Shown piece by piece: positions 32,671 to 44,336 of a stretch of DNA of 64,000 bases (positions within the stretch are counted from its first letter, which is position 1; each line of letters begins with the position of its first letter). The position numbers were made by a program, and so were the translations under genes. Below the pieces are notes generated by a model. It saw nothing but the letters and a program-made list of their open reading frames with translations, was not told where the DNA came from and did not search any database. The stretch comes from Iphione sp. A-MEVVRFRX5 (lineage: Eukaryota), in NCBI GenBank assembly GCA_976226885.1, contig OZ320313.1:77190001-77254000 (forward strand), read 5' to 3'.

Positions 32671-34049
32671 AGAAAGGAAACTTGCAAATGGCTGAGTACT
32701 GTTCAGTAACAACATGTATACAATATATGACGGATATACTCAATAAAATTTTTCAAATCAAATATATGACCAAGAACGGGTTGACCATCTCTGCATCTTT
32801 ACTTAAAAACACTGATAAGTACCGTAGGTAAACAGCCTGCTCTCTTTACTGACCACACTTCAGATCAAGGCACCAGTCGGGCCCCTTGCCGGCTCAAACA
32901 TCATAATGAAATTTATAACATAAGCAAGAAGATGGTGTATAGTATATGTCTCTGTCATTATGCATTCCAGAGATATTCGCAAAAGAAGAATAAATTGAAA
33001 GTTACCATCGGTTGTAAGGTGGTACTGGGTAGGGTCGGTCAGGTCACCATAAACACAAACTTTTTTTTATTAGGCCTTATAATGAAATAGGCTAGCTACT
33101 GTATGGCAAGGCCTAGCCCAGACAGCAGTTCTAGACACTACTATATAAAGGGGAAAAGGACACAGTCCTACCAAGATAGAAAAGTAGGCCTACATATCTC
33201 ATGACTCTGGGATTTTCTTCAAAAGAAAAAAAGGAAATGGGAAAAGAGGGGAATTCAGGAGATTTAGCATTATATGTTAAAATATTGGAATGGGAACGTA
33301 AACTAGCAGATGGGGTGGGGTCAATAGAGAGAGGAGGTTGGTTACCACGAGTTTTAATGAGAAGGGGGGGATCAAAAGGGACGTCACAATTTTGACAAAT
33401 ATATTTCATCATGCAGGTATCTGTACCGAAGAAAAATAAAATTATGGGGGAGGGGTTTGCCCTTCTCCCAAAGGGAAAAGGGGAGCCCCTTTGTCCTTTG
33501 AAGCGTGCACAGCCGAGGGGTCAGTGGTAAAGTAAGGAAAATCTGTCACCTAAAATTAGGGAAGGACCCTGTTGCCTCGTATAACCAACCTTTTTTTTTT
33601 TAAGGCACCTGCCTTGTATTTATTTCTGAAGAGGTCACAGATGGTTAAATACAGCACCTTGGTTTTTAGGTTTTTTGTTAAAAAGACATAATCATGAGTG
33701 AAATAAACAGTATGTGGACATTAATTCTGTTAAGGGGCGACTCGCAACCTGAGGTATACCTTTAAAATGTTTTCCACCTGAAACATCTGGTAAGACCTGA
33801 ACAAAGGAGGCGCTGCGATCGGCACTATGGCGACAGGCTGAATTTCGGCTCCATCTTTGTAGGTGGTGGGGTTTGGAAAAGCTCTTACGATTCACTAAAC
33901 CTACCATGCCCCCAACAACATTAAACATTCAAGAACAGGAGGAAATAGTTCATCCCAGTGGCCGACTGAAGAAACTTGAGCAATACGACGTCAACGTGAG
34001 CTCAGCTTGACAATCGTACTGCGCAGCCACAGAGCCGGCAAGACTAGTT

Positions 34050-35356
34050 CCTACAAGAGATTACAAACTGGCACCCCATCTCCCTTCTCAACTTAGACTA
34101 CCAAATTTTTGCAACAATTGTTGCCAATAGACTTAGACTCTGTATTGAAGATCTAGTACTACCCCTGCAGACAGGTTACATTAAACACAGATCCATACAG
34201 GACAATCATAGACTCATTGCAGACATTCGATGGCATCTCCTTCAATCTAATATCTCAGGGGCAATCATTGCAATAGACTTCAAAAAAGCATTTGACTCAG
34301 TTAACTGGAATGCCATGATGGCCACTCTCAAAAAGTTTGGCTTCAAGGAAAACTTCTGTCACATCATTAGCCTACTATACCAAGGGGCAGAATCCTGTAT
34401 TTGTGATGGGGGATACACCACACCATTTTTTAAGATGACCAGGGCAGTCAGACAAGGCTGCCTTCTTTCACCACTTCTTTTCATTTTGGTCACAGAAATA
34501 CTTGGCAGATTAATTCAAACAAATCCTGATTTTCATGGCATACAAACCCAAGGAACCCGTTATTGTTATTTCCAATATGCAGATGACATCAGTATTTTTG
34601 CTTCCTCCCCCGCAGATGTAAATGCTATATTCTCCACACTCTCTATCTTCCAACTTGCTACAAGTATCACAGTAAACTATGTTAAGACGCAGGCCATTGC
34701 TTTTGGCAGATTTGATCCTTGTCAAGTTCTTAAAGACATTACATGGTGTACATTTGTAAAAATATTGGGCATATACTATTCCAATGGCAGTGATCCCCAT
34801 TTTGACTACTAGCATAATTTTAAGCCCAGGTTAAAACTATGTCAACAGATAGCCAACAGATGGAAAAATCAAGGGCTCTCTTGAAAAGGAAAAGTTATCA
34901 TCCATAATACGTTGATTTTGCCACTACTACAATTTGCAATATATAATTTGCCCATGCCTCCTAAAGTTATTCTCAAATATAATGCCCTTGTAACTGACTT
35001 TCTTTGGAGTGGTAAGCAAGCAAAAATCTAAAGGGATGTATTATTTCAGCCCACCTCACAGGGTGGACTAAACCTGGCTTCAATCGTTCATCGATTTTAT
35101 GCCAATCGAATAAAGTTGGTGAGCCATATGGCAGAATGCTGTAAGAATTTAACCTGGGGTGAGCTAGCTAAGAAAGCTCTGAAAATGACAAACATCAGTA
35201 AATTTTTCAAAAACAAATCTAGATGTACACTAGCTAGAGTAGCTGACCCCTTACTATAAGGAGCTATGTAAGGTGTGGACCAAATTTTATATCCAGGTCC
35301 CAAGCACAAAACTGGGCTTGTATGCAGACCCTCTATGGGTCAATGACTTCTTAGAT
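34050..35356 (+). mobile_element. L1/Tx1-like LINE ORF2 (RT), 5' segment of the element split by the 35357-43302 insertion
   Basis: NWHPISLLNLDYQI, DFKKAFDS, RQGCLLSPLLF, QYADD, KILGIYY, FLWSGK, GGLNL; ends ...PLWVNDFLD at the TSD. Confidence 0.85.
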
Positions 35357-36520
35357 TGAATTGAATTGAATAAGTTTTTATTAACCAAATTCTCAAGTGG
35401 TAAGCAGAGTTTTCCTGGTTAACAATGTAGTGCAGATGAACACAAACATAGTGACAGTAGATAACAGTGAGTAAATATAGCAAAGCAAGGACGACAAAGG
35501 TTATGAAGTATAAAGTACAGGGCTGAAGACAATTTAAGCCTGGGCTACAGAAGACAGTTCTCTTCAAGTCAGGCAGACGTAGATGCCATGCACCATACGC
35601 GCCAGTATATGAAGGAGCATACAGGAAAGCCGGAGCTTTCTGCTACACTCCCCGTAAATAAGAGAGCAATGAACAGTTACGTCTGGCAATTGCTATCTAA
35701 ACAGGAGTACGCAACGTATAAAGTTACCACGGTCGTGTTGTACTTGAATAGCTATGCTACTGCAAGTCATGTTCGCCTACGACATTAAACCAGAATGTAC
35801 ATATGTCTTGGAGTTCGAGAACAACTGCATCCGAACACGAAACCACTACTCATTGAGTTTTAACTGCTCACTATAGGTATTCACATATCTGATACATGTT
35901 ATTAAACAAGAGTTATAAGATCATGCTATGTCTTTGTCATAATCTACCTAAGGCACATAAGCAATCGCATATAGTCGATGATGCAGTTACATTGGTGGCA
36001 TAGAGGGGGGGGAAGGAGTAAAGCGAGACTGGATCTCAAACGTTGCCAGCCTGCCTTAGCTAGTTAAAGTGGATTACACACTACAGTACTGCCACGATAT
36101 CGAAGGGCTGCGTGGGGGGGGACCTATGAAGACAAGAGGCGTAATGTGGTGGGGGTTGTAGAGTGGACGGGATGGGGGAGGGAGTTGGTGGTGGTAGGTT
36201 GGACGGGAACAGTCTGGATTGTCGAAACAAGGGGGGCGGGGGAGTTTTAAGTACATTTGGTAGTTGCGGGGATTGTCAGAATATTATATTCAAGGCGGAT
36301 GAATTAGTACGGACCAGGTCTTAAATGCATATCGAGTGTGGGAATAATGAAGTGGGGGAAAAGAAGAGGGGTATAAGTGGGTCAGTGTGGGGGGGTGGGG
36401 CTTGGGACGATCATCAATGTGCATTACTATGAATTTTAGTCGTGTCTGACCCGTAGCCGCAGGCCCCCCTAATTTGAAGTCGAGGGGCCAGCCCTGTCCA
36501 GTAATTACTGCCATCAAGGC

Positions 36521-39307
36521 TTATACCCTGTAGGCAGCCGCCTGGAGTTGCCCTTGGCAAACAGCCAGCTTTCTCTTCACCTTCATAGCGTCAGGAAGTC
36601 GATTCCAGGCTCGAACGGCGCGGTATCGCAGACTCGAGGCGTATTTCATTGAGCGGGGCTTGATCATTTTTGCCTGCCATCCTGCACCCCTTCTGGTCGA
36701 GGTTCTCTTGCTGCTTGGTAGTAGACCTAGGTGCATCAGCCTGTGGACGATTTCTACCCCCTTCTTTAAGTTCAGCTCCTCAATGCGGGGGACAGCATAC
36801 AGGTGTTGGAGCCGCATTGCAGACAGGTGCGGGCCGCACTGTATTGCAGCACGCGCACATCTATTTAAGTGCGTCTGTAAACTTACCATTCCGGACGGGC
36901 TCAGTTGGAAGAGGACCACGGCATGGTACTGTACATGAGACTCGACCAACGCCCGGAAAAGTGTAAGTCTTGCTCCTAGGGGAAGGTGACGCTTGCATCT
37001 GCACAACCGTGCAGCTACCGTCCACATCTTTTGCTTCAGGTGGTTGAGATCATGCCGCATGCTTAGGGTGGGGTCCAGTTTGTAACCCAGAACGCAAGCT
37101 GAGGTTGCCAGTTGTAACTCATCGGGGCCAACATTAAGATCCAGTGGGATTCCCGCTGAACGCCCTATTGGCATGTAGCAGCACTTGTTTGCACTTAAAA
37201 GCAGGCCTTCTGTCTGACTCCATTTGTACACTGACGAGATGACGCGTTGCGAATCTGCCCGTAGCCGTAGAAGATCACGCGATGCCACTACCGCGGTTAG
37301 GTCGTCAGCGTACATGATGCCCGTGGCGTTGGACGGCAGGTGTTTGACCACGTTGTTCATCACCAACAAGAAGGCAGCCGGTCCAAAGATGGACCCCTGC
37401 GGGACTCCTTGGTTGATCCGTCGGTTAGTAGACTCAGATCCTAGGCAACGAACGTACTGGGATCTCTCGGCGAGATACCCACCCACTAAGTTGCAGATTT
37501 TGTTGCTCGCACCATGTGTCCGTAGTAGGCGGACGATGCTGTCGTGGGGCACAAGATCAAACGCCTTTTTTAGGTCGAACATTATCAGGTTGCAGTACAT
37601 GCCTAAGTTCAATTGGTCATGGGCCGTGCAGATCAGGTCGGCGATGGCGGTTTCTGTGCCTCGTCCCCTTCTGAAGCCGTGTTGGTGGATGTCAAACACA
37701 CCCTTGGCTTCGAGTCTACTCATCAACTGCGGTACAAACCAAGCTTCGCAAACCTTTCCAGGGAGTGGTAATATAGAGACCGGGCGGTAGTTTCCTGGGC
37801 TTTGCTGATCTCCTTTCTTGTAGACGGGCGTGACTCTCGCCCTCTTCCAGGGGGATGGATACTTGCCCGTCTCGTAAATTCGCCCGAAAATCCATGATAA
37901 GAAATCCGGTAGTAGTAGCAGCAGTGGCTTTAGGACGCATGTCGGTACTCCGACAACTCCTGAAGACTTTTTCAGGCGCTGCTTCTGGACGAGTTTCACT
38001 ACCTCCAGGGGTGTCGGCGGGTGAAGTTCAATCTCGTTGGCATCGTATCTGACCGCCAGTGCTGGTTGCGTCGGGTTCCTTACAGGCACCAGCCTAGTAA
38101 CCTCGTCGACAAAGTAGTCGTTAAACGCCTGTGCCACTGATTCGGTCGCCACTCCTGCTTGATTAAGTAGCTCTAGAGTCGGCAGTACTTCTCGGCGCTT
38201 TGACTGGCCCATTGCTTCCCGCAGTGTGTCCCACATCTTGCCAGCGTCCCGTCCGGCCTCCTGTAGCTTCTCCGTCCAATATCTCTTGCGTTCTCTCTGC
38301 AGCGCATAGCGGACTTTTTTATTTAGGAACTTGAAGATTCGGTGATCATCCTCATTCCGGTAGCTCTTCCAACGCTTGAAGAAGAAGTCCCTGTCCTTGA
38401 TCAAGGACAGGGTACTCACACTGATAGTCGGTCCTTCATTGACTCCCCGATAGCGCACACTCTTCTCTGGACAGGTCCTGTCGAGTTCGTTCCGTAGGCC
38501 GTCCTCAAATCTTTTCCATGCTTCTTCGTGACATCCTTCCATATTGACGAATTCTTCTCTCATACGGTCATGTAGCAGGGGGATGTCCACCTTATGCCAC
38601 TGTCGTGTTACCTTCAACGATGTCTTTAGCTTTGGCGCCCCCTTTTTCAAATCAATGCTGATTGGGAGGTGGTCACTCAGAAAGTGCTGCAGGATTCTGG
38701 CGGGTCTCCTGGCAGGGAAGCTTAGCCAGAGATGGTCCAAGCAGCTATCACTGTCCACCATGGTGCCATCCATAATCAGTTGAGAGAGACCTCTACCCGC
38801 CAGCGCGTTGATGATTCCGGAGCCAGCACCACCAGCTTTGGAGTAGTTGTAATTGAAGTCGCCAGTGATACAGCAGTCATGTCGTCGTCTATCGAGAAAA
38901 TCGTCACAGGCTGCAGATATGGCTTTGATGGAGTGAGCCATCTTATCATGCGGGGGTCTGTAGACCAAGATGATGTCCAACGGTCGTCGTTTGCCCCCCT
39001 TGATAGTTATCGCTAGCAGTTCACAGCATGACCCCTCTTGTTCAGGCAGTGCTGTACGCAAGATGTCAATGCCATCCTTCACAAAGATGACAACACCCCC
39101 TCCACGTTGGCGTTGTAATTCCGTTCTGTCCCGTCGTATCATTTCATATCCTGGGAGAAGAATTTCATCATCCTTCACAGCCGGCGTCAGCCAGGTTTCC
39201 GTAATGCATAGCACATCCACATTTTCGTTCTTCACGAGGTCGCATATGTCTGGCATTTTCCTCCTGATGCTCCGGATATTGTAGACCACCATGCGTAGTT
39301 TGCCCAT
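36521..39307 (-). CDS. LINE ORF2: APE endonuclease plus reverse transcriptase (CR1/L2/Crack/Daphne type)
   Basis: VVYNIRS, LCITETWL, RRDR..GGGV, VYRPP, ITGDFN, CLDH, SDH; YRPVSILP, QHGFR, DLKKAFD, GVPQGSIFGP, YADD. No stops; first ATG 39307 (the ORF track starts at GTG 39337). Confidence 0.95.
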   Translation of the reverse strand: MGKLRMVVYNIRSIRRKMPDICDLVKNENVDVLCITETWLTPAVKDDEILLPGYEMIRRDRTELQRQRGGGVVIFVKDGIDILRTALPEQEGSCCELLAITIKGGKRRPLDIILVYRPPHDKMAHSIKAISAACDDFLDRRRHDCCITGDFNYNYSKAGGAGSGIINALAGRGLSQLIMDGTMVDSDSCLDHLWLSFPARRPARILQHFLSDHLPISIDLKKGAPKLKTSLKVTRQWHKVDIPLLHDRMREEFVNMEGCHEEAWKRFEDGLRNELDRTCPEKSVRYRGVNEGPTISVSTLSLIKDRDFFFKRWKSYRNEDDHRIFKFLNKKVRYALQRERKRYWTEKLQEAGRDAGKMWDTLREAMGQSKRREVLPTLELLNQAGVATESVAQAFNDYFVDEVTRLVPVRNPTQPALAVRYDANEIELHPPTPLEVVKLVQKQRLKKSSGVVGVPTCVLKPLLLLLPDFLSWIFGRIYETGKYPSPWKRARVTPVYKKGDQQSPGNYRPVSILPLPGKVCEAWFVPQLMSRLEAKGVFDIHQHGFRRGRGTETAIADLICTAHDQLNLGMYCNLIMFDLKKAFDLVPHDSIVRLLRTHGASNKICNLVGGYLAERSQYVRCLGSESTNRRINQGVPQGSIFGPAAFLLVMNNVVKHLPSNATGIMYADDLTAVVASRDLLRLRADSQRVISSVYKWSQTEGLLLSANKCCYMPIGRSAGIPLDLNVGPDELQLATSACVLGYKLDPTLSMRHDLNHLKQKMWTVAARLCRCKRHLPLGARLTLFRALVESHVQYHAVVLFQLSPSGMVSLQTHLNRCARAAIQCGPHLSAMRLQHLYAVPRIEELNLKKGVEIVHRLMHLGLLPSSKRTSTRRGAGWQAKMIKPRSMKYASSLRYRAVRAWNRLPDAMKVKRKLAVCQGQLQAAAYRV

Positions 39308-40848
39308 CACTAGGCCGCAGTAAGGGGGGAGTGCCACCTCTGCCAGCTATTTAGGTGGCCCGCAGCCACGGGTCACACAAGCGAGGGTGGTATAATATGG
39401 AGTAGGGTCGATATCCAATATACCTGGGGTAATAGGGGGCGGGGCGGTTAGTTACTGGTATAAATTAGAAAGAAATTGATGGAGAGGGGAAATAAGTAAA
39501 TAAGCAGGGGGAAAAGATGGAGTAAGGGGTCGAGCTAGGGAGGGACGCAGAGACAATGTGACAATGAGAGTCAGGCATGGGGCAGGGTCATTGGCGTAGA
39601 TGTTAGCGAGGCAGGTCAGGATGGGAAGAGAGAGCACAGAAAACGTTTAGGACTGAGTCATCCTCAAGAGTTGTCTTACTAGAAAGAATTCACAAGATAA
39701 CACATAGCGGCAACAGTCATAATGTAACTACAGCAGCGCATCCAGTGTGCGTGATAAAATTTCACGGAGCCGGTTGAAATGGCAGGAAAGGATTCATTAG
39801 CTAACACACAGCATCATCACTCATGGTCGGAGCACAGTCGCACATTTGGTACCCGTACTAAAGATCCACAGAGTCGTTATCAGAGTTGGTAACAGGATAA
39901 TTAAAAATCATTTTGTAAACAAAAACAAGATTGTACTACTGAAGTTGCTTTTCATAGATTGTGTAACCGCATGGCCAAGATGAATAGCTTGACGTCAAGG
40001 CCTGGCTCGAAAATGATTATCAGTAGCGCATACCTCGTCACTGCCAGTCGCCAGTATATGCAATAAATGCAGTGATGTACCTGTCCATGGCGAGTAAACA
40101 GATGGCAAGGAATAATGGGGTAGTATCAGTATATTTTGGCCGTCACAGCCGTTCGCTAGTATAGGTAGTATAAGCAGTAATATAGCTGCCCATGGTGGAG
40201 AGGAAAAGAGGGGTTGACGAGAAGTTATGTGAGGAAGTTAACAGAAGTTATGCAAATATAACCCGACGCATGATCCTATAGAAAGCCAGCTCCGTAGTAC
40301 AGTGCTCTGCGGTCACGCCGTATTATGCTAGACACCAGATGGACACTTGCGAGTAAAACGGGACAGACTAGATTAACTGTTCATGCGGTATACCAGAACT
40401 CCCTACAAAACAAAATACCTGAGATGTATGATTTAACTATGTTTGTGCAATATAGCAAGGTCTCTCTTCAGTTCTAATACCTGAACTATCACAATATAGT
40501 GTCAACAAGAGGCGTAAGTCATGACAACATTCACAAAAACACTCTCTGCAGCATGTCTTGTCCATAATCTGTTGTTAAAACATAGTCTAAGTAAAGAATA
40601 ATAAGAACAAGCACATTGAGAGACGCTGGGATAAGACAAACGTTCGCAAATCGCTACACGGTTAGACAGTTATAAACACCCTGATAGAAAGAGTCTATGG
40701 TAAATTTGTGATTAACTTTAGAGTCACTGTAGCGAGATATAGTCAATGTTCGTATGTCGTTAGATAATTAGACGGTTGTAAACTCTCTGGTAAAGGCGTT
40801 GACAGTAAATATCGTATTTAACCTTAGAGTCACTGCAGCACGACATAG

Positions 40849-41490
40849 TCAGTGTGGATTAACGGTTGGTCCAAACAGGGCACTGAAGGCCCATATGAAC
40901 TTCGACAGTTTTTTAGCCCAGTAATTGGTTACATACTCACGTGGCGTTATGCCATCGTCTTCCAAAGCACCGCATTCCCGGAACAATAGCCCCTCCATCC
41001 TCTCGGCAGGGGGCATGTCCAGGGTTGGGCAGATAAGGCCAAGCCCAAGTCCAATCTCATGCGCGAGTCTGTTATGCACAGCAATCAGCGCGTCAAGTCG
41101 TACTTGCTCCGCAGGGTCCTCGATGTCAGGTTCCAACTTCATGAGATCGACACTTGGTACCGCTCCTAGGATCAGTCGGGGGCCGGTTGCCTCTGGCCCG
41201 GAAACGCGATCTGTCAGCTCTCCGATTATTCCCGTAAGGACCTCTCGATACCTGCCTGGGTCACGCATGACGGCGGACCATTGCCCATCCACACGCGCCA
41301 GGCAGTCAAATGTGCCAGTTATCATCAGCACAACATGGAAGGTCGAGGTGTCCACACCAATACCCCTTCGCAACATGTACCAGTAGCTTCGCCGTTTCGT
41401 GGAGACTATATGGATCTCCACAGGCGGCATCGCCAAGCCGCGGAGTTTGGTGCAAGCGGGCGAGGTCCTGCTGTCACACAGTATCATCAC
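40849..41490 (-). CDS. SGNH/GDSL hydrolase-like ORF of the LINE, catalytic motifs altered
   Basis: Block I ILCDSR (GDS-like), block III ITGTFD (GxND-like), block V DDGITP (DGxHP-like, His absent); 213 codons open. Confidence 0.75.
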   Translation of the reverse strand: MMILCDSRTSPACTKLRGLAMPPVEIHIVSTKRRSYWYMLRRGIGVDTSTFHVVLMITGTFDCLARVDGQWSAVMRDPGRYREVLTGIIGELTDRVSGPEATGPRLILGAVPSVDLMKLEPDIEDPAEQVRLDALIAVHNRLAHEIGLGLGLICPTLDMPPAERMEGLLFRECGALEDDGITPREYVTNYWAKKLSKFIWAFSALFGPTVNPH

Positions 41491-41727
41491 CCGAAGTCGG
41501 TCCCTACCGGGGACTCCCTGATGGTTCTTTATAATAACATCTGTCAGATGAAGGAGGGAAACAGTACCAGGACAGCATCAGAGATAATATACAACATCAA
41601 GTACCACACAACAGATCAGACTACAGATCACAGTTAAACATGATTTAAAAGCTTAGTGACTATTTTTGAGTAGAGCCAGGCCTAGTAGCCGGCAGTTATC
41701 ATCGTTGACTCAGTTACACTGGCGAAA

Positions 41728-43233
41728 TTACCTCTTTGTAGAGTTACGAATTATGTCACGGACTCGCATGAGCGCACGTCCTAAAATATTTTGACCAGAT
41801 CGGTTCGCTGATTCATCGTCCATTTTACCAAATGGGACGCCACTACCAAGTTCCTCGTCGGCATCGGCATACACCAATTCCCTGTCGCCAGACGACAACA
41901 GAGAAAAACTCATCATACGATTTAGCCTATATTTGCTTAGGAGTAACTTATCCAAAAGTACCTCTCGATTTTCCTGCCATGATTCGCTAGGATCCTTTTC
42001 TAGGCTCACTTTCCTGGAATCAAATCCGCAGCTTGCACGCTCGATTTTTCTCAGAGCCTCGATATCGCCTGAATCGCGCGCTTTTAGACTACGGTACGCG
42101 CTTTCGAGATTGTCGTAAACTTTATGCTCATAAGAGATGATCGCAGGTTCCACCGGTGACAGCGATGGGGAATCATTTGAGAATATCACCTGTTCGTCAC
42201 TGACGTGGGCAAACAGGTTGGAAGGCGATATTTCTTTGGGCAGCTTGTGTGTTTCATTCGGCCCAAAACGCTCTCCTTCGACCACGATGTCTACCCCCTT
42301 CGCAGTCGCGCGGATACCCTGTTTTCTGATCACTGATGCAAGCCGGGACTGCTTCTTGTTTACTTCCGCCGCCCTTTGCGGGATGTCCTCCTTAATAAAC
42401 ACATTTTTTAGGGTCCCTTTTTTCATAAGAGAGGCTTTATTTTTCAGCACCTTATTTCTCGCGTCCACGGAGTAGAGATCCACAAGGATACGGCTGTTGT
42501 TGTTGTCCCCGCCTAACCATCGGGCGCTCATAATCTCATCCCGATGTAAACCGGCAGCTGTCTGAAGGACAGATTGTGCAGTACGTAGTGCACTTTTTTC
42601 CTTTCGTGCTCCTTCGATAATTAGCTTATGTGAACGCTCTCTTATCTCAGCTCTGGAGATGTCAAGATCTAACTTGTCACAGCGGTTCGTAACGCTGGAA
42701 AGCACTGCTTCGACATTCTCCAACCTGCCTAGAATATTTAACTGTGCCGGTGGCTCCTTGTCAACCTCCGGCCTTCCAGCCTTGACTGTGTCTGCCAGTT
42801 CCTTGACCTTAGCATCAAACTGGCTCTTCAGATCGTTGAGACTATTGTATACCTCGGCCCAACGTTTCTTGCAGGTGTTGCAGCAGTCACAGTTATCCTT
42901 GCTTTCATCGTTCATATCTTTGACGCCATCTGGCACTCCGCCTGGTCCCGTAGGGCCCTCACGATCGCCGGTGTTGACAGTGTCAACCCGGCTAGGGTTT
43001 GGCATAGGCATTGGTGCCGGTGTCGATACCAGTGTCGGTGTCGGTGTCAACCCTCCTCGATCGCCGGCTCTCCCGGTATCGCCATTCTTGCTCCCATTAT
43101 CGCTCGTCAACGGACCCGTTTGCTCAATCTGGTCGTTACTCACTGAGTCCTTATCTTTCTTTCGTTGCTTCGACATGGACCTCAGCGTCGGGGTATTCCC
43201 CGGCGGCTCTTTGAACCCAGATCGTCTGCTCAT
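41728..43233 (-). CDS. LINE ORF1: disordered N-terminus, Cys cluster, coiled coil, RRM-like domain, C-terminal NADAR/YbiA-like domain
   Basis: KLIIEG...ARWLG...RILVDL...VFIKEDIP (ORF1 RRM-like). C-terminal ~160 aa: YDNLESAYRSLKA, WQENREVLLDKLLLSKY, LLSSGDRELVYADADEELGSG, GQNILGRALMRVRD (NADAR pattern). Confidence 0.88.
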   Translation of the reverse strand: MSRRSGFKEPPGNTPTLRSMSKQRKKDKDSVSNDQIEQTGPLTSDNGSKNGDTGRAGDRGGLTPTPTLVSTPAPMPMPNPSRVDTVNTGDREGPTGPGGVPDGVKDMNDESKDNCDCCNTCKKRWAEVYNSLNDLKSQFDAKVKELADTVKAGRPEVDKEPPAQLNILGRLENVEAVLSSVTNRCDKLDLDISRAEIRERSHKLIIEGARKEKSALRTAQSVLQTAAGLHRDEIMSARWLGGDNNNSRILVDLYSVDARNKVLKNKASLMKKGTLKNVFIKEDIPQRAAEVNKKQSRLASVIRKQGIRATAKGVDIVVEGERFGPNETHKLPKEISPSNLFAHVSDEQVIFSNDSPSLSPVEPAIISYEHKVYDNLESAYRSLKARDSGDIEALRKIERASCGFDSRKVSLEKDPSESWQENREVLLDKLLLSKYRLNRMMSFSLLSSGDRELVYADADEELGSGVPFGKMDDESANRSGQNILGRALMRVRDIIRNSTKR

Positions 43234-43302
43234 CGTCTCTGTGTCGCTCCGTATTTCTGGACCCTCTTACATGCACGTCCTACTCGGTCGGCGCCATTGA
43301 TC

Positions 43303-44336
43303 TAGATCAAGCACGATTATGTAAAATAAGACACAAGCTAGAACCAGCTGGTTGCCTGTATATAGGACATTTGTTAACCAATAATATTACATTATGGTCC
43401 ATTGAAGAATTGAAACTCAAGTACTCTGTAACCATTACCACCTCAGAACATGCTATATTGTCCAGAGGTATGCCCAATTATTACAAGGTTCAATTTCAAG
43501 AAGAAGCCATCAATACAGATGACCTAAGTAGGCTAATCATCGAAAACCTAGAACAAGCAAAAATTTTATCTCTTCTATCAGCCAAACAAATATATGATCT
43601 CACATTGGAATTAGAGGCAGAAGATATCCCATGTAAAAGAAGATTAACAACCCAGATTTCAGGGTTAATAACAGAAGAGTTCACATGGCAAGGTATTTTC
43701 CTGAATGCTTTTCAATGCTGTTTGTCCACAAAATTTCAAAGCTTCATGTATAAGGTTATTTTCATGCTTATACCCTGTAAGTCATATCTACAAAAAATCT
43801 GTGTAGTAGAATCCAGTGAATGTCCATTCTGTTCCAACAAAGATGATATCATCCACTTTTTCTTTACTTGTCCAACAACTGAACAATTTTGGTGTACATT
43901 ATTTCAATGGTACAAATTTACATTTGGTATTAAAATCCACACCCTTGTAACAAAGGAACTCTTATTGGGTGTTCAAGATCAATTTCCAAATAGAAGTATT
44001 CTCAATTATGTACTTGTTGTTGCCAAATTCTTTATATACAAGAGGAAACTATTTCATAATGGCAATTTAAACTTTAAAGTTTTTCTGTCTGAATTGTTGC
44101 AGTTAATAAGCCTAAGATGTATGGCTCATATATATAGAGGTTCACACAATAGTCATAAAAAATGGAGGGATTTAAAAGACATGCTACAATTAATGCAGAC
44201 ATCATAAATCCCTGTTATGTTTTCCTGTTAAGGTTACTCGTTTTCTCTTTATTGTTATGTAAAACAAAAGAGTCGACGCATCATCCTGTATCCTTCCTCA
44301 GAAATAAATGGTGAGACGCCAATTTAAAAAAAAAAA
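43303..44336 (+). mobile_element. L1/Tx1-like LINE 3' segment (zf-RVT region and poly-A tail), continuation of 34050-35356
   Basis: Resumes DQARLCKIRHKLEPAG...; FQSFMYK...CPFC..DDIIHFFFTC..FW; AATAAA near 44303 and A-tail at about 44325-44336. Confidence 0.85.

Follow-up and report, generated by a model that had tools for sequence, protein, structure and literature searches.

The 64,000-nucleotide (nt) stretch of DNA analysed here, referred to as the window (Iphione sp. A-MEVVRFRX5, assembly GCA_976226885.1, contig OZ320313.1, forward-strand positions 77,190,001 to 77,254,000), carries on its minus strand a long interspersed nuclear element (LINE) with three genes: open reading frame (ORF) 1, a middle ORF for a protein of SGNH fold, and ORF2. 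The middle gene is probably produced as a separate protein from a spliced RNA, using a start codon hidden in the NADAR-coding part of ORF1. In the proposed mechanism, ATG 41980, which lies within the NADAR code in another frame, would open six codons, and this micro-exon would be joined through a donor at 41962/41961 (in splice sites a slash marks the boundary between exon and intron) to an acceptor at 41541/41540. The ATG would be reached on a short subgenomic RNA started from an internal promoter in the 3' half of ORF1, while the full-length RNA, mostly unspliced behind a weak donor, would keep ORF1 intact and serve as the copying template. The predicted product has 7 + 229 residues (~236 amino acids, aa) and no peptide in common with the ORF1 protein (ORF1p). 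The relevant features are the following, in window coordinates:

35355..43297 (-): full-length three-gene LINE, ~7.9 kb, delimited by blastn against five sister copies and by its 3' tail
41728..43233 (-): ORF1, 501 aa, with a disordered N-terminus, a likely coiled coil, an L1-type RRM-CTD and a NADAR domain
41746..42213 (-): NADAR domain of ORF1 (Pfam E 1.6e-15), with the hidden signals inside
41962..41980 (-): predicted coding micro-exon of six codons and one further base, opened by the hidden ATG at 41980-41978 and read in a different frame from ORF1
41956..41964 (-): conserved donor GAG/GTACTT, the intron starting at 41961
41541..41961 (-): predicted 421-nt intron, including the ORF1 3' end, the ORF1 stop and a spacer
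41541..41563 (-): conserved polypyrimidine tract (T-rich in the sequence logo) and CAG acceptor, phase 1
40849..41540 (-): exon 2, an SGNH-fold, probably non-catalytic protein, 229 codons (fold model with a predicted local distance difference test, pLDDT, of 88.6)

Conserved candidate start codon, donor and acceptor

The 1.18 Gb genome was searched at the protein level, and 150 of 2339 candidates were scored, all 150 with E<1e-29. Seventy loci were hand-picked down the search rankings, giving 71 with the window; the beginning of the middle ORF is present in 69 of them, and in 65 the NADAR part is there as well. These 65 loci form 40 clusters below 75% identity; the clustering is ungapped, so some families are split. 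The loci include families only 32-37% identical in protein, and the layout of ORF1, SGNH-fold ORF and ORF2 is repeated in the homologous loci examined.

The original prediction, made on the window sequence, had pointed out a pyrimidine-rich acceptor at 41541/41540; this site is indeed phase 1 for the middle ORF, so that it needs a phase-1 donor. A pyrimidine tract and YAG are present at this position in 67/69 loci, the site being shifted by 3 nt in frame in one more and lost in another, and both the ORF itself and this acceptor are beyond chance. When 15 ORF1s were scanned for an invariant GT, a single column with donor context emerged, AG/GTA at 41962/41961, which is phase 0 for ORF1 and phase 1 for the frame opened by an ATG 19 nt upstream, ~1250 nt into ORF1. 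Both AG/GTA and the ATG at -19 are found in 65/65 loci with a NADAR part, so the sequence has the marks of a GT-AG intron at both ends, with a predicted length of 256-1030 nt across the 40 clusters. No phase-1 donor in the ORF1 frame is conserved, the best being present in 11/15 sequences with poor context. The ATG, the donor and the acceptor match in phase and are conserved.

These signals were compared with a null model in which synonymous codons were varied with the amino acids held fixed, over the 40 clusters. The A before TGG, which completes the ATG, was observed 40 times against 15.4 expected, the AG of the donor 40 times against 21.2 and the GTA 40 times against 9.7, and a stop interrupts the micro-exon in 1 cluster, against 19.8 expected. 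At 68 sites where a third-position T would create a stop in the micro-exon frame, T was observed once (23.8 expected); harmless third-position T is not avoided there (14 observed, 13.8 expected). The avoidance ends at the ATG, with 24 observed and 24.4 expected just upstream, and a weaker depletion of stop-creating T reappears further upstream (44 vs 71). The codon counts thus show selection against stops in the predicted micro-exon frame. A frameshift from ORF1 into this frame is disfavoured, as the frame is closed no more than two codons upstream of the ATG in 15/40 clusters. Judged from these patterns, the splice from 41962 to 41540 very probably takes place, and ATG 41980 is likely the start codon.

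The SGNH-fold protein

The open frame described originally, at 41577-40849 on the minus strand and containing CDS, GTFD and DGITP, is present, and its assignment to the SGNH group is confirmed by the predicted structure: the best Foldseek and VIA-align matches of the exon 2 model are GDSL/SGNH proteins, with 1yzf on top in Foldseek (E 1e-6; VIA-align Z 13.5, root-mean-square deviation, rmsd, 3.5, 170 residues aligned). Pfam gave nothing relevant for 34/34 members of the middle-ORF family, word-index protein searches found no relative, and sequence searches of the PDB were blank. A profile search returned 16 matches: a single close fragment, P0001, besides distant GDSL-like proteins and noise from repeat proteins. 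P0002 and P0010 are large proteins on one contig that begin with an RRM-like part and contain tandem esterase repeats akin to the middle-ORF family; they are possibly domesticated copies. Exon 2 is under purifying selection, with 47 synonymous and 5 non-synonymous codon differences to the copy L013 over 195 codons.

Catalytic residues were counted in 34 aligned members, 6 of the 40 clusters being left out for a broken frame. The block I Ser is kept in the window copy, as had been stated; in the family it occurs in 10/34 members only, compared with 30/30 in the sister lineage of L149. The block II Gly is found in 1-2/34, the aligned stretch reading R-[A/S/I/V]-[T/S]-Y. At block III the window copy has GTFD in place of GxND, which had been taken as a mark of inactivation; however, GICD or GVCD stands there in 22/22 sister esterases with Ser and His intact, so GTFD is not diagnostic. 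The His of the block V Asp-x-x-His is replaced by Thr in the window copy and is present in 5/34 members. Ser and His occur together in 1/34, and the earlier view of a probably inactive protein holds: the family has mostly lost the catalytic Ser/His pair. The sole spliced-type member with both residues is L091.

Translation from an ATG of its own at 41487 had been named as the finding that would speak against splicing. That Met is present in 8/40 clusters and falls inside the first core strand; no Met precedes the block I Cys of exon 2 in 26/40 clusters. The first 13 residues of exon 2 are conserved and confidently folded in the model.

Since the protein appears conserved without its catalytic pair, a binding role is indicated. 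By analogy, lipid or membrane binding is the first choice, as in ZfL2-1, an element with a type IV esterase ORF1p of the ZfL2-1/CR1/RTEX kind for which lipid binding was shown (passages of PMC3905857); RNA binding, as in Oskar, comes second. There is perhaps an even chance that the product binds without catalysing, with lipid or membrane as the most likely target as for the ZfL2-1 esterase, and that it is supplied in trans to the ribonucleoprotein particle of the element. The OSK domain of Oskar likewise has an SGNH fold without catalytic residues, and it binds RNA (passages of PMC5785220); its structure 5a4a superposes on the exon 2 model with Z 11.1 and rmsd 3.5 over 160 aligned residues. 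The middle-ORF family, however, shows no gain in basic charge over its active-type sisters (median net charge +7 vs +16; window copy 0), and RNA binding therefore gains no support from charge.

Sister LINEs as controls

A Pfam NADAR search gave 4416 first-look candidates, NADAR-bearing LINEs being very numerous in this genome; the best 150 were scored and 30 loci read, one being set aside as a likely host gene. Locus L130 resembles a host NADAR gene. The other 29 copies keep Trp at the position of the hidden start in 29 cases, have the ATG in 5 and AG/GT in 0; their esterase ORF has its own Met in 28/29, and 12 of these 28 retain Ser and His. In a tree of 44 ORF1 C-terminal parts (21 intact spliced-type, 22 of the 29 others that were long enough, and the likely host gene), a branch with support 100/99 separates the 21 spliced-type ORF1s from the rest, with L149 adjoining them; the root is placed at the midpoint only.

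From the L149 lineage, the nearest sister, 30 loci (L160-L189) were read, 23 of which have the NADAR part. Its esterase has the Ser in 30/30 and its own Met in 28/30; the donor AG/GT is found in 0/23 and the micro-frame is open in 11/23. L149 has the same Glu-Val pair as the spliced type, without the donor. In L160-L189 a GACCAATGG box and a GTCATGC motif are fixed in the NADAR code, the second fixed motif lying 21 nt past CCAATGG (20/22), and the esterase has Ser and His intact and begins with an ATG of its own. The CCAATGG box is presumably a CCAAT-box promoter motif. As the ATG of this lineage mostly sits in that box, the sequences suggest that the hidden ATG derived from a CCAAT-like box and that the stretch was already a promoter earlier.

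Pyrimidine content rises before the esterase start of the L149 lineage (0.63-0.64 vs 0.44 in other own-ATG elements), and pyrimidine-rich YAG sites stand directly before this start; 184 nt past the Trp codon lies a candidate donor, with GT in 16/22. The L149 lineage may possibly represent an ancestral internal promoter with an older intron in the 5' untranslated region (UTR).

Other sister copies with an own ATG carry probably inactive esterases, with SDGR or TDGR and no His (L132, L134, L136, L139, L141-L145 and L147, and equally L148, L150, L153, L155 and L158), so catalytic loss occurs independently of splicing. In the NADAR domain (window 41746-42213) the spliced clade has a sequence like LVYAD..D.ELG, other copies LIEAS.D.YWG; degeneration of the domain appears to coincide with the spliced clade.

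A candidate internal promoter

Between 4 and 20 ATGs per frame lie upstream of the hidden ATG in the two main frames of ORF1, so that scanning from the 5' end is unlikely. No conserved acceptor upstream of this ATG could be seen in the sequence logo. A scan of synonymous sites over 473 ORF1 columns in 21 sequences (19 for the GCGATAAT motif) pointed to four DNA motifs:

43096..43103 (-): GCGATAAT motif in ORF1, candidate 5' promoter element (z 4.4-5.7, 19 sequences)
42307..42312 (-): CGCGCG box, candidate internal-promoter site (z 9.6 and 6.8)
42172..42177 (-): AATGAT/TGA-type motif, candidate internal-promoter site (third-position T 21/21 vs 10.1 expected)
42076..42081 (-): GCGCGC box, upstream of the hidden ATG by ~100 nt, candidate internal-promoter site (z 8.6 and 5.0)

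The strongest peaks of ORF1 thus belong to the CG boxes, which lie upstream of the donor by ~350 and ~120 nt (z 9.6 and 8.6), compared with best peaks of z 4.7 in exon 2 and 3.4 in ORF2; at the first box CGC is found in 19/21 sequences against 3.2 expected. The observed/expected ratio of CpG is 1.22 in the region before the ATG, compared with 0.41 for the flank in the window, and out-of-frame ATGs are scarce in the last 45 nt before the start (4 observed, 11.3 expected). By eye, the two CG boxes do not pair consistently. From these sequence features, an internal promoter giving a subgenomic RNA with a short leader fits best and seems rather likely. GCGATAAT is fixed at the DNA level within an otherwise variable ORF1 N-terminus.

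Alternative explanations

Several observations weigh against the spliced, hidden-start reading. The 40 clusters share one origin, with some families split among them, and so do not count as 40 separate events. In the L149 lineage, too, the A before TGG is fixed, with ATG in 22/23 loci, mostly as CCAATGG (19/22); as it is not a start there, initiation does not follow from the ATG count by itself. Only 1/40 clusters have G at donor position +5, for which reason the donor is considered weak, and the branch-point motif YTRAY is not enriched (20/40 clusters, 17/40 in a control window). The scarcity of out-of-frame ATGs before the start, which speaks for the promoter, is one bin of 17 (z -3.0). Finally, the copies in the genome are unspliced: two patterns for the micro-exon gave 38 + 11 matches, of which 48/48 with element homology continue with GTA and the 49th has no such homology, and of two junction patterns one gave 0 matches in the genome and the other 11, none with element homology. 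The 551-aa frame of L053 (L053:2481-4133), considered as a spliced copy, is a foreign endonuclease running into the retained acceptor tract and exon 2. These results indicate that the copies derive from unspliced RNA; unspliced-only copies would be equally expected if splicing never happened. LINE ORF2p shows cis preference. Copying by ORF2p of the RNA that made it (passages of PMC10760644), together with a weak donor, would fit unspliced copies.

A total lack of splicing, with the ORF read from ATG 41487 or from a non-AUG codon and the conserved signals as by-products of constraint on protein or promoter, would agree with the missing spliced copies and with an ATG already present within a CCAAT-like box in the sister lineage. 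It is nevertheless very improbable, since Met 41487 is rare and internal to strand 1, since the donor, the acceptor and the micro-exon frame are constrained at the codon level to a degree that far exceeds the needs of the protein, and since the nearest sister keeps the Trp and L149 the same Glu-Val pair, both without the donor. The same splice and start could also operate on the full-length RNA, the ATG being reached by stop-restart after a truncated ORF1 or by internal entry; splicing would then switch the RNA from full ORF1p to the SGNH protein and an ORF1p that lacks NADAR. In the spliced RNA the ORF1 frame would indeed end 3-71 codons (median ~15) past the junction and hence close to the ATG, the CG boxes might act as RNA elements, and no second start site was observed. 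However, the distance to that stop varies and is no smaller than for the third frame, occasional copying of spliced full-length RNA would be expected (0/48 matches are spliced), and the box at the same place in the sister lineage, which we take to be a CCAAT box, fits a promoter; this route is accordingly judged unlikely.

The original prediction was a fusion of ORF1p with the esterase as an alternative isoform, through two other sites:

41726..41734 (-): proposed donor over the ORF1 stop, not conserved
41504..41511 (-): proposed acceptor CCGGTAG, not conserved and without a pyrimidine tract (45% pyrimidine vs 80%; four AGs upstream)

Both sites exist as described, AAGAG/GTAATT over the ORF1 stop (intron start 41731) and CCGGTAG/G ending at 41504, and their 228-nt join is in frame; they are not beyond chance, G/T being present at the donor in 17/40 clusters and AG at the acceptor in 3/40. 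Conservation among copies, which had been put forward as a check, is thus lacking: the pair is common only to 7 near copies (7/7) with 84-87% identical DNA, and the acceptor is already gone in the next lineages L019, L020, L054 and L055. Besides the poor acceptor context, the join would delete ~12 residues of the conserved exon 2 N-terminus, and the proposed donor is out of frame with the conserved acceptor, so that joining these two would only add a 12-residue tail ending at a stop. Esterases within ORF1p are known (passages of PMC3905857); here the type IV arrangement is absent, as a stop and a spacer separate ORF1 and esterase in 40/40 clusters and the conserved splice does not continue the ORF1 frame. 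The ORF1 stop follows the conserved donor at a distance of 230 nt, and this donor is phase 1 for the hidden-ATG frame, which argues for a stand-alone product rather than for ORF1p plus esterase. The fusion is therefore hardly probable as a general isoform, a minor one limited to the 7-copy subfamily being conceivable.

Relation to known systems

To our knowledge, LINEs are taken to be intronless two-gene elements, because spliced RNA should yield intronless copies. Precedents exist for each ingredient of the separate spliced gene proposed here, namely LINE ORF1 esterases, the oyster Tx1 NADAR, the spliced ORF3 of gypsy and rotifer elements, and L1 ORF0. An SGNH-fold protein is carried by the LINEs ZfL2-1, CR1 and RTEX (passages of PMC3905857, PMC4120745 and PMC13343379); in the ZfL2-1 kind the esterase is an active domain of ORF1p replacing the RRM, whereas the present element retains an L1-type ORF1p and has the esterase as a gene of its own, from which Ser and His have mostly disappeared. 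A word search for 'splic' had no hit in the available text of PMC4120745 and PMC13343379. Another LINE with NADAR in ORF1 is the Tx1 group of Crassostrea gigas, for which the passages of PMC12477816 report neither an esterase gene ('esterase' has 0 occurrences) nor splicing; unlike it, the ORF2 described here has no zf-RVT and is followed by a tandem-repeat tail.

As a third gene, the middle ORF resembles Drosophila gypsy env and the ORF3s of long terminal repeat (LTR) elements, including the GDSL ORF3 of bdelloid Vesta, which receive their start codon from ORF1 by splicing (ATGT in gypsy), the unspliced RNA being the genome (passages of PMC8096092 and PMC5408684). Those elements are of LTR type, take the start from the beginning of gag and have ORF3 after pol; conversely, the present LINE has non-LTR ends, an ATG deep in ORF1 in another frame, and its gene between ORF1 and ORF2. 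It works like a gypsy-type spliced ORF3 without being a member. A third ORF is also known from a LINE in primate L1 ORF0, which has splice donors and a promoter of its own, but it runs antisense within the 5' UTR and is spliced to exons of the host (passages of PMC10760644); here the donor, the acceptor and both exons are sense, internal and kept across deep lineages. Foamy virus tas/bet are accessory proteins from an internal promoter with splicing (PMC13220597), though in a retrovirus and with unrelated proteins, the promoter of the LINE being a candidate one. In the literature outside Repbase, supplements and subscription journals, no LINE with a conserved, spliced, internal third gene was found.

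A broader reading, for which the chances seem balanced, is that of a LINE clade with a retrovirus-like programme, in which an internal promoter within the NADAR code would drive a subgenomic RNA, a former CCAAT-box ATG was recruited as a start and a regulated intron joins it to a pseudo-esterase; one stretch would then be protein code, promoter, start and splice donor at once, the unspliced RNA being the genome. If so, the ancestral state (own ATG, active esterase, CCAAT box) is still in the genome, so that the origin of a new coding exon and its intron can be traced step by step. A selected sense-strand intron across families one-third identical would mean that LINEs can split genomic and accessory RNAs like gypsy and retroviruses. 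One genome would hold a natural series, from an active esterase with its own start to a dead one with a spliced, hidden start, which lets the role of retroelement esterases, a question open since the ZfL2-1 structure, be tested; moreover, the model predicts one exact junction. Annotation based on ORFs misses both the gene, which has no Pfam match and usually no Met, and its start.

Other features of the element

The remaining parts of the LINE are the following:

43234..43297 (-): short 5' UTR beginning with ATGGCG, which opens most families with an intact 5' end
39308..40848 (-): non-coding spacer, 1541 nt, 26 ATGs
36521..39307 (-): ORF2, APE endonuclease and reverse transcriptase (RT), with its own ATG
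35355..35382 (-): AATAAA followed by the (ATTCA)n tail, common to L013, L015 and L016

An ORF2 with APE and RT and without a C-terminal zf-RVT would fit the CR1 group (CR1/L2/Crack/Daphne/Kiri), and the (ATTCA)n tail agrees with the short tandem-repeat 3' tail that we take to be characteristic of that group. ORF1p is of type II (L1-like) with NADAR, the RRM-CTD being followed by the NADAR domain; a predicted model of its C-terminal 309 aa matches NADAR 8bau, YbiA 2b3w and L1 ORF1p 2yko, and word-index protein searches found no relative of residues 170-501. A predicted-complex run with the ORF1 C-terminal part and the SGNH protein gave a median of 0.42, one control reaching 0.55.

Homologous spacers before ORF2 measure 490-1541 nt and contain 7-34 ATGs, with no long ORF and no conserved acceptor. 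The micro-exon was considered as a shared start for ORF2 and rejected: an in-frame acceptor near 39423 is missing from near copies, and ORF2 has its own ATG. A poly(A) signal A[AT]TAAA after exon 2 is found in 8/24 spacers at scattered, non-conserved sites. In L069 a second SGNH ORF (L069:6867-7598) stands where ORF2 would be. No target-site duplication is evident around the LINE. RT-like and zf-RVT fragments on the plus strand flank it in the window (34048-34812 and 43215-44207), and for this reason it was probably inserted into an older L1/Tx1-type element.

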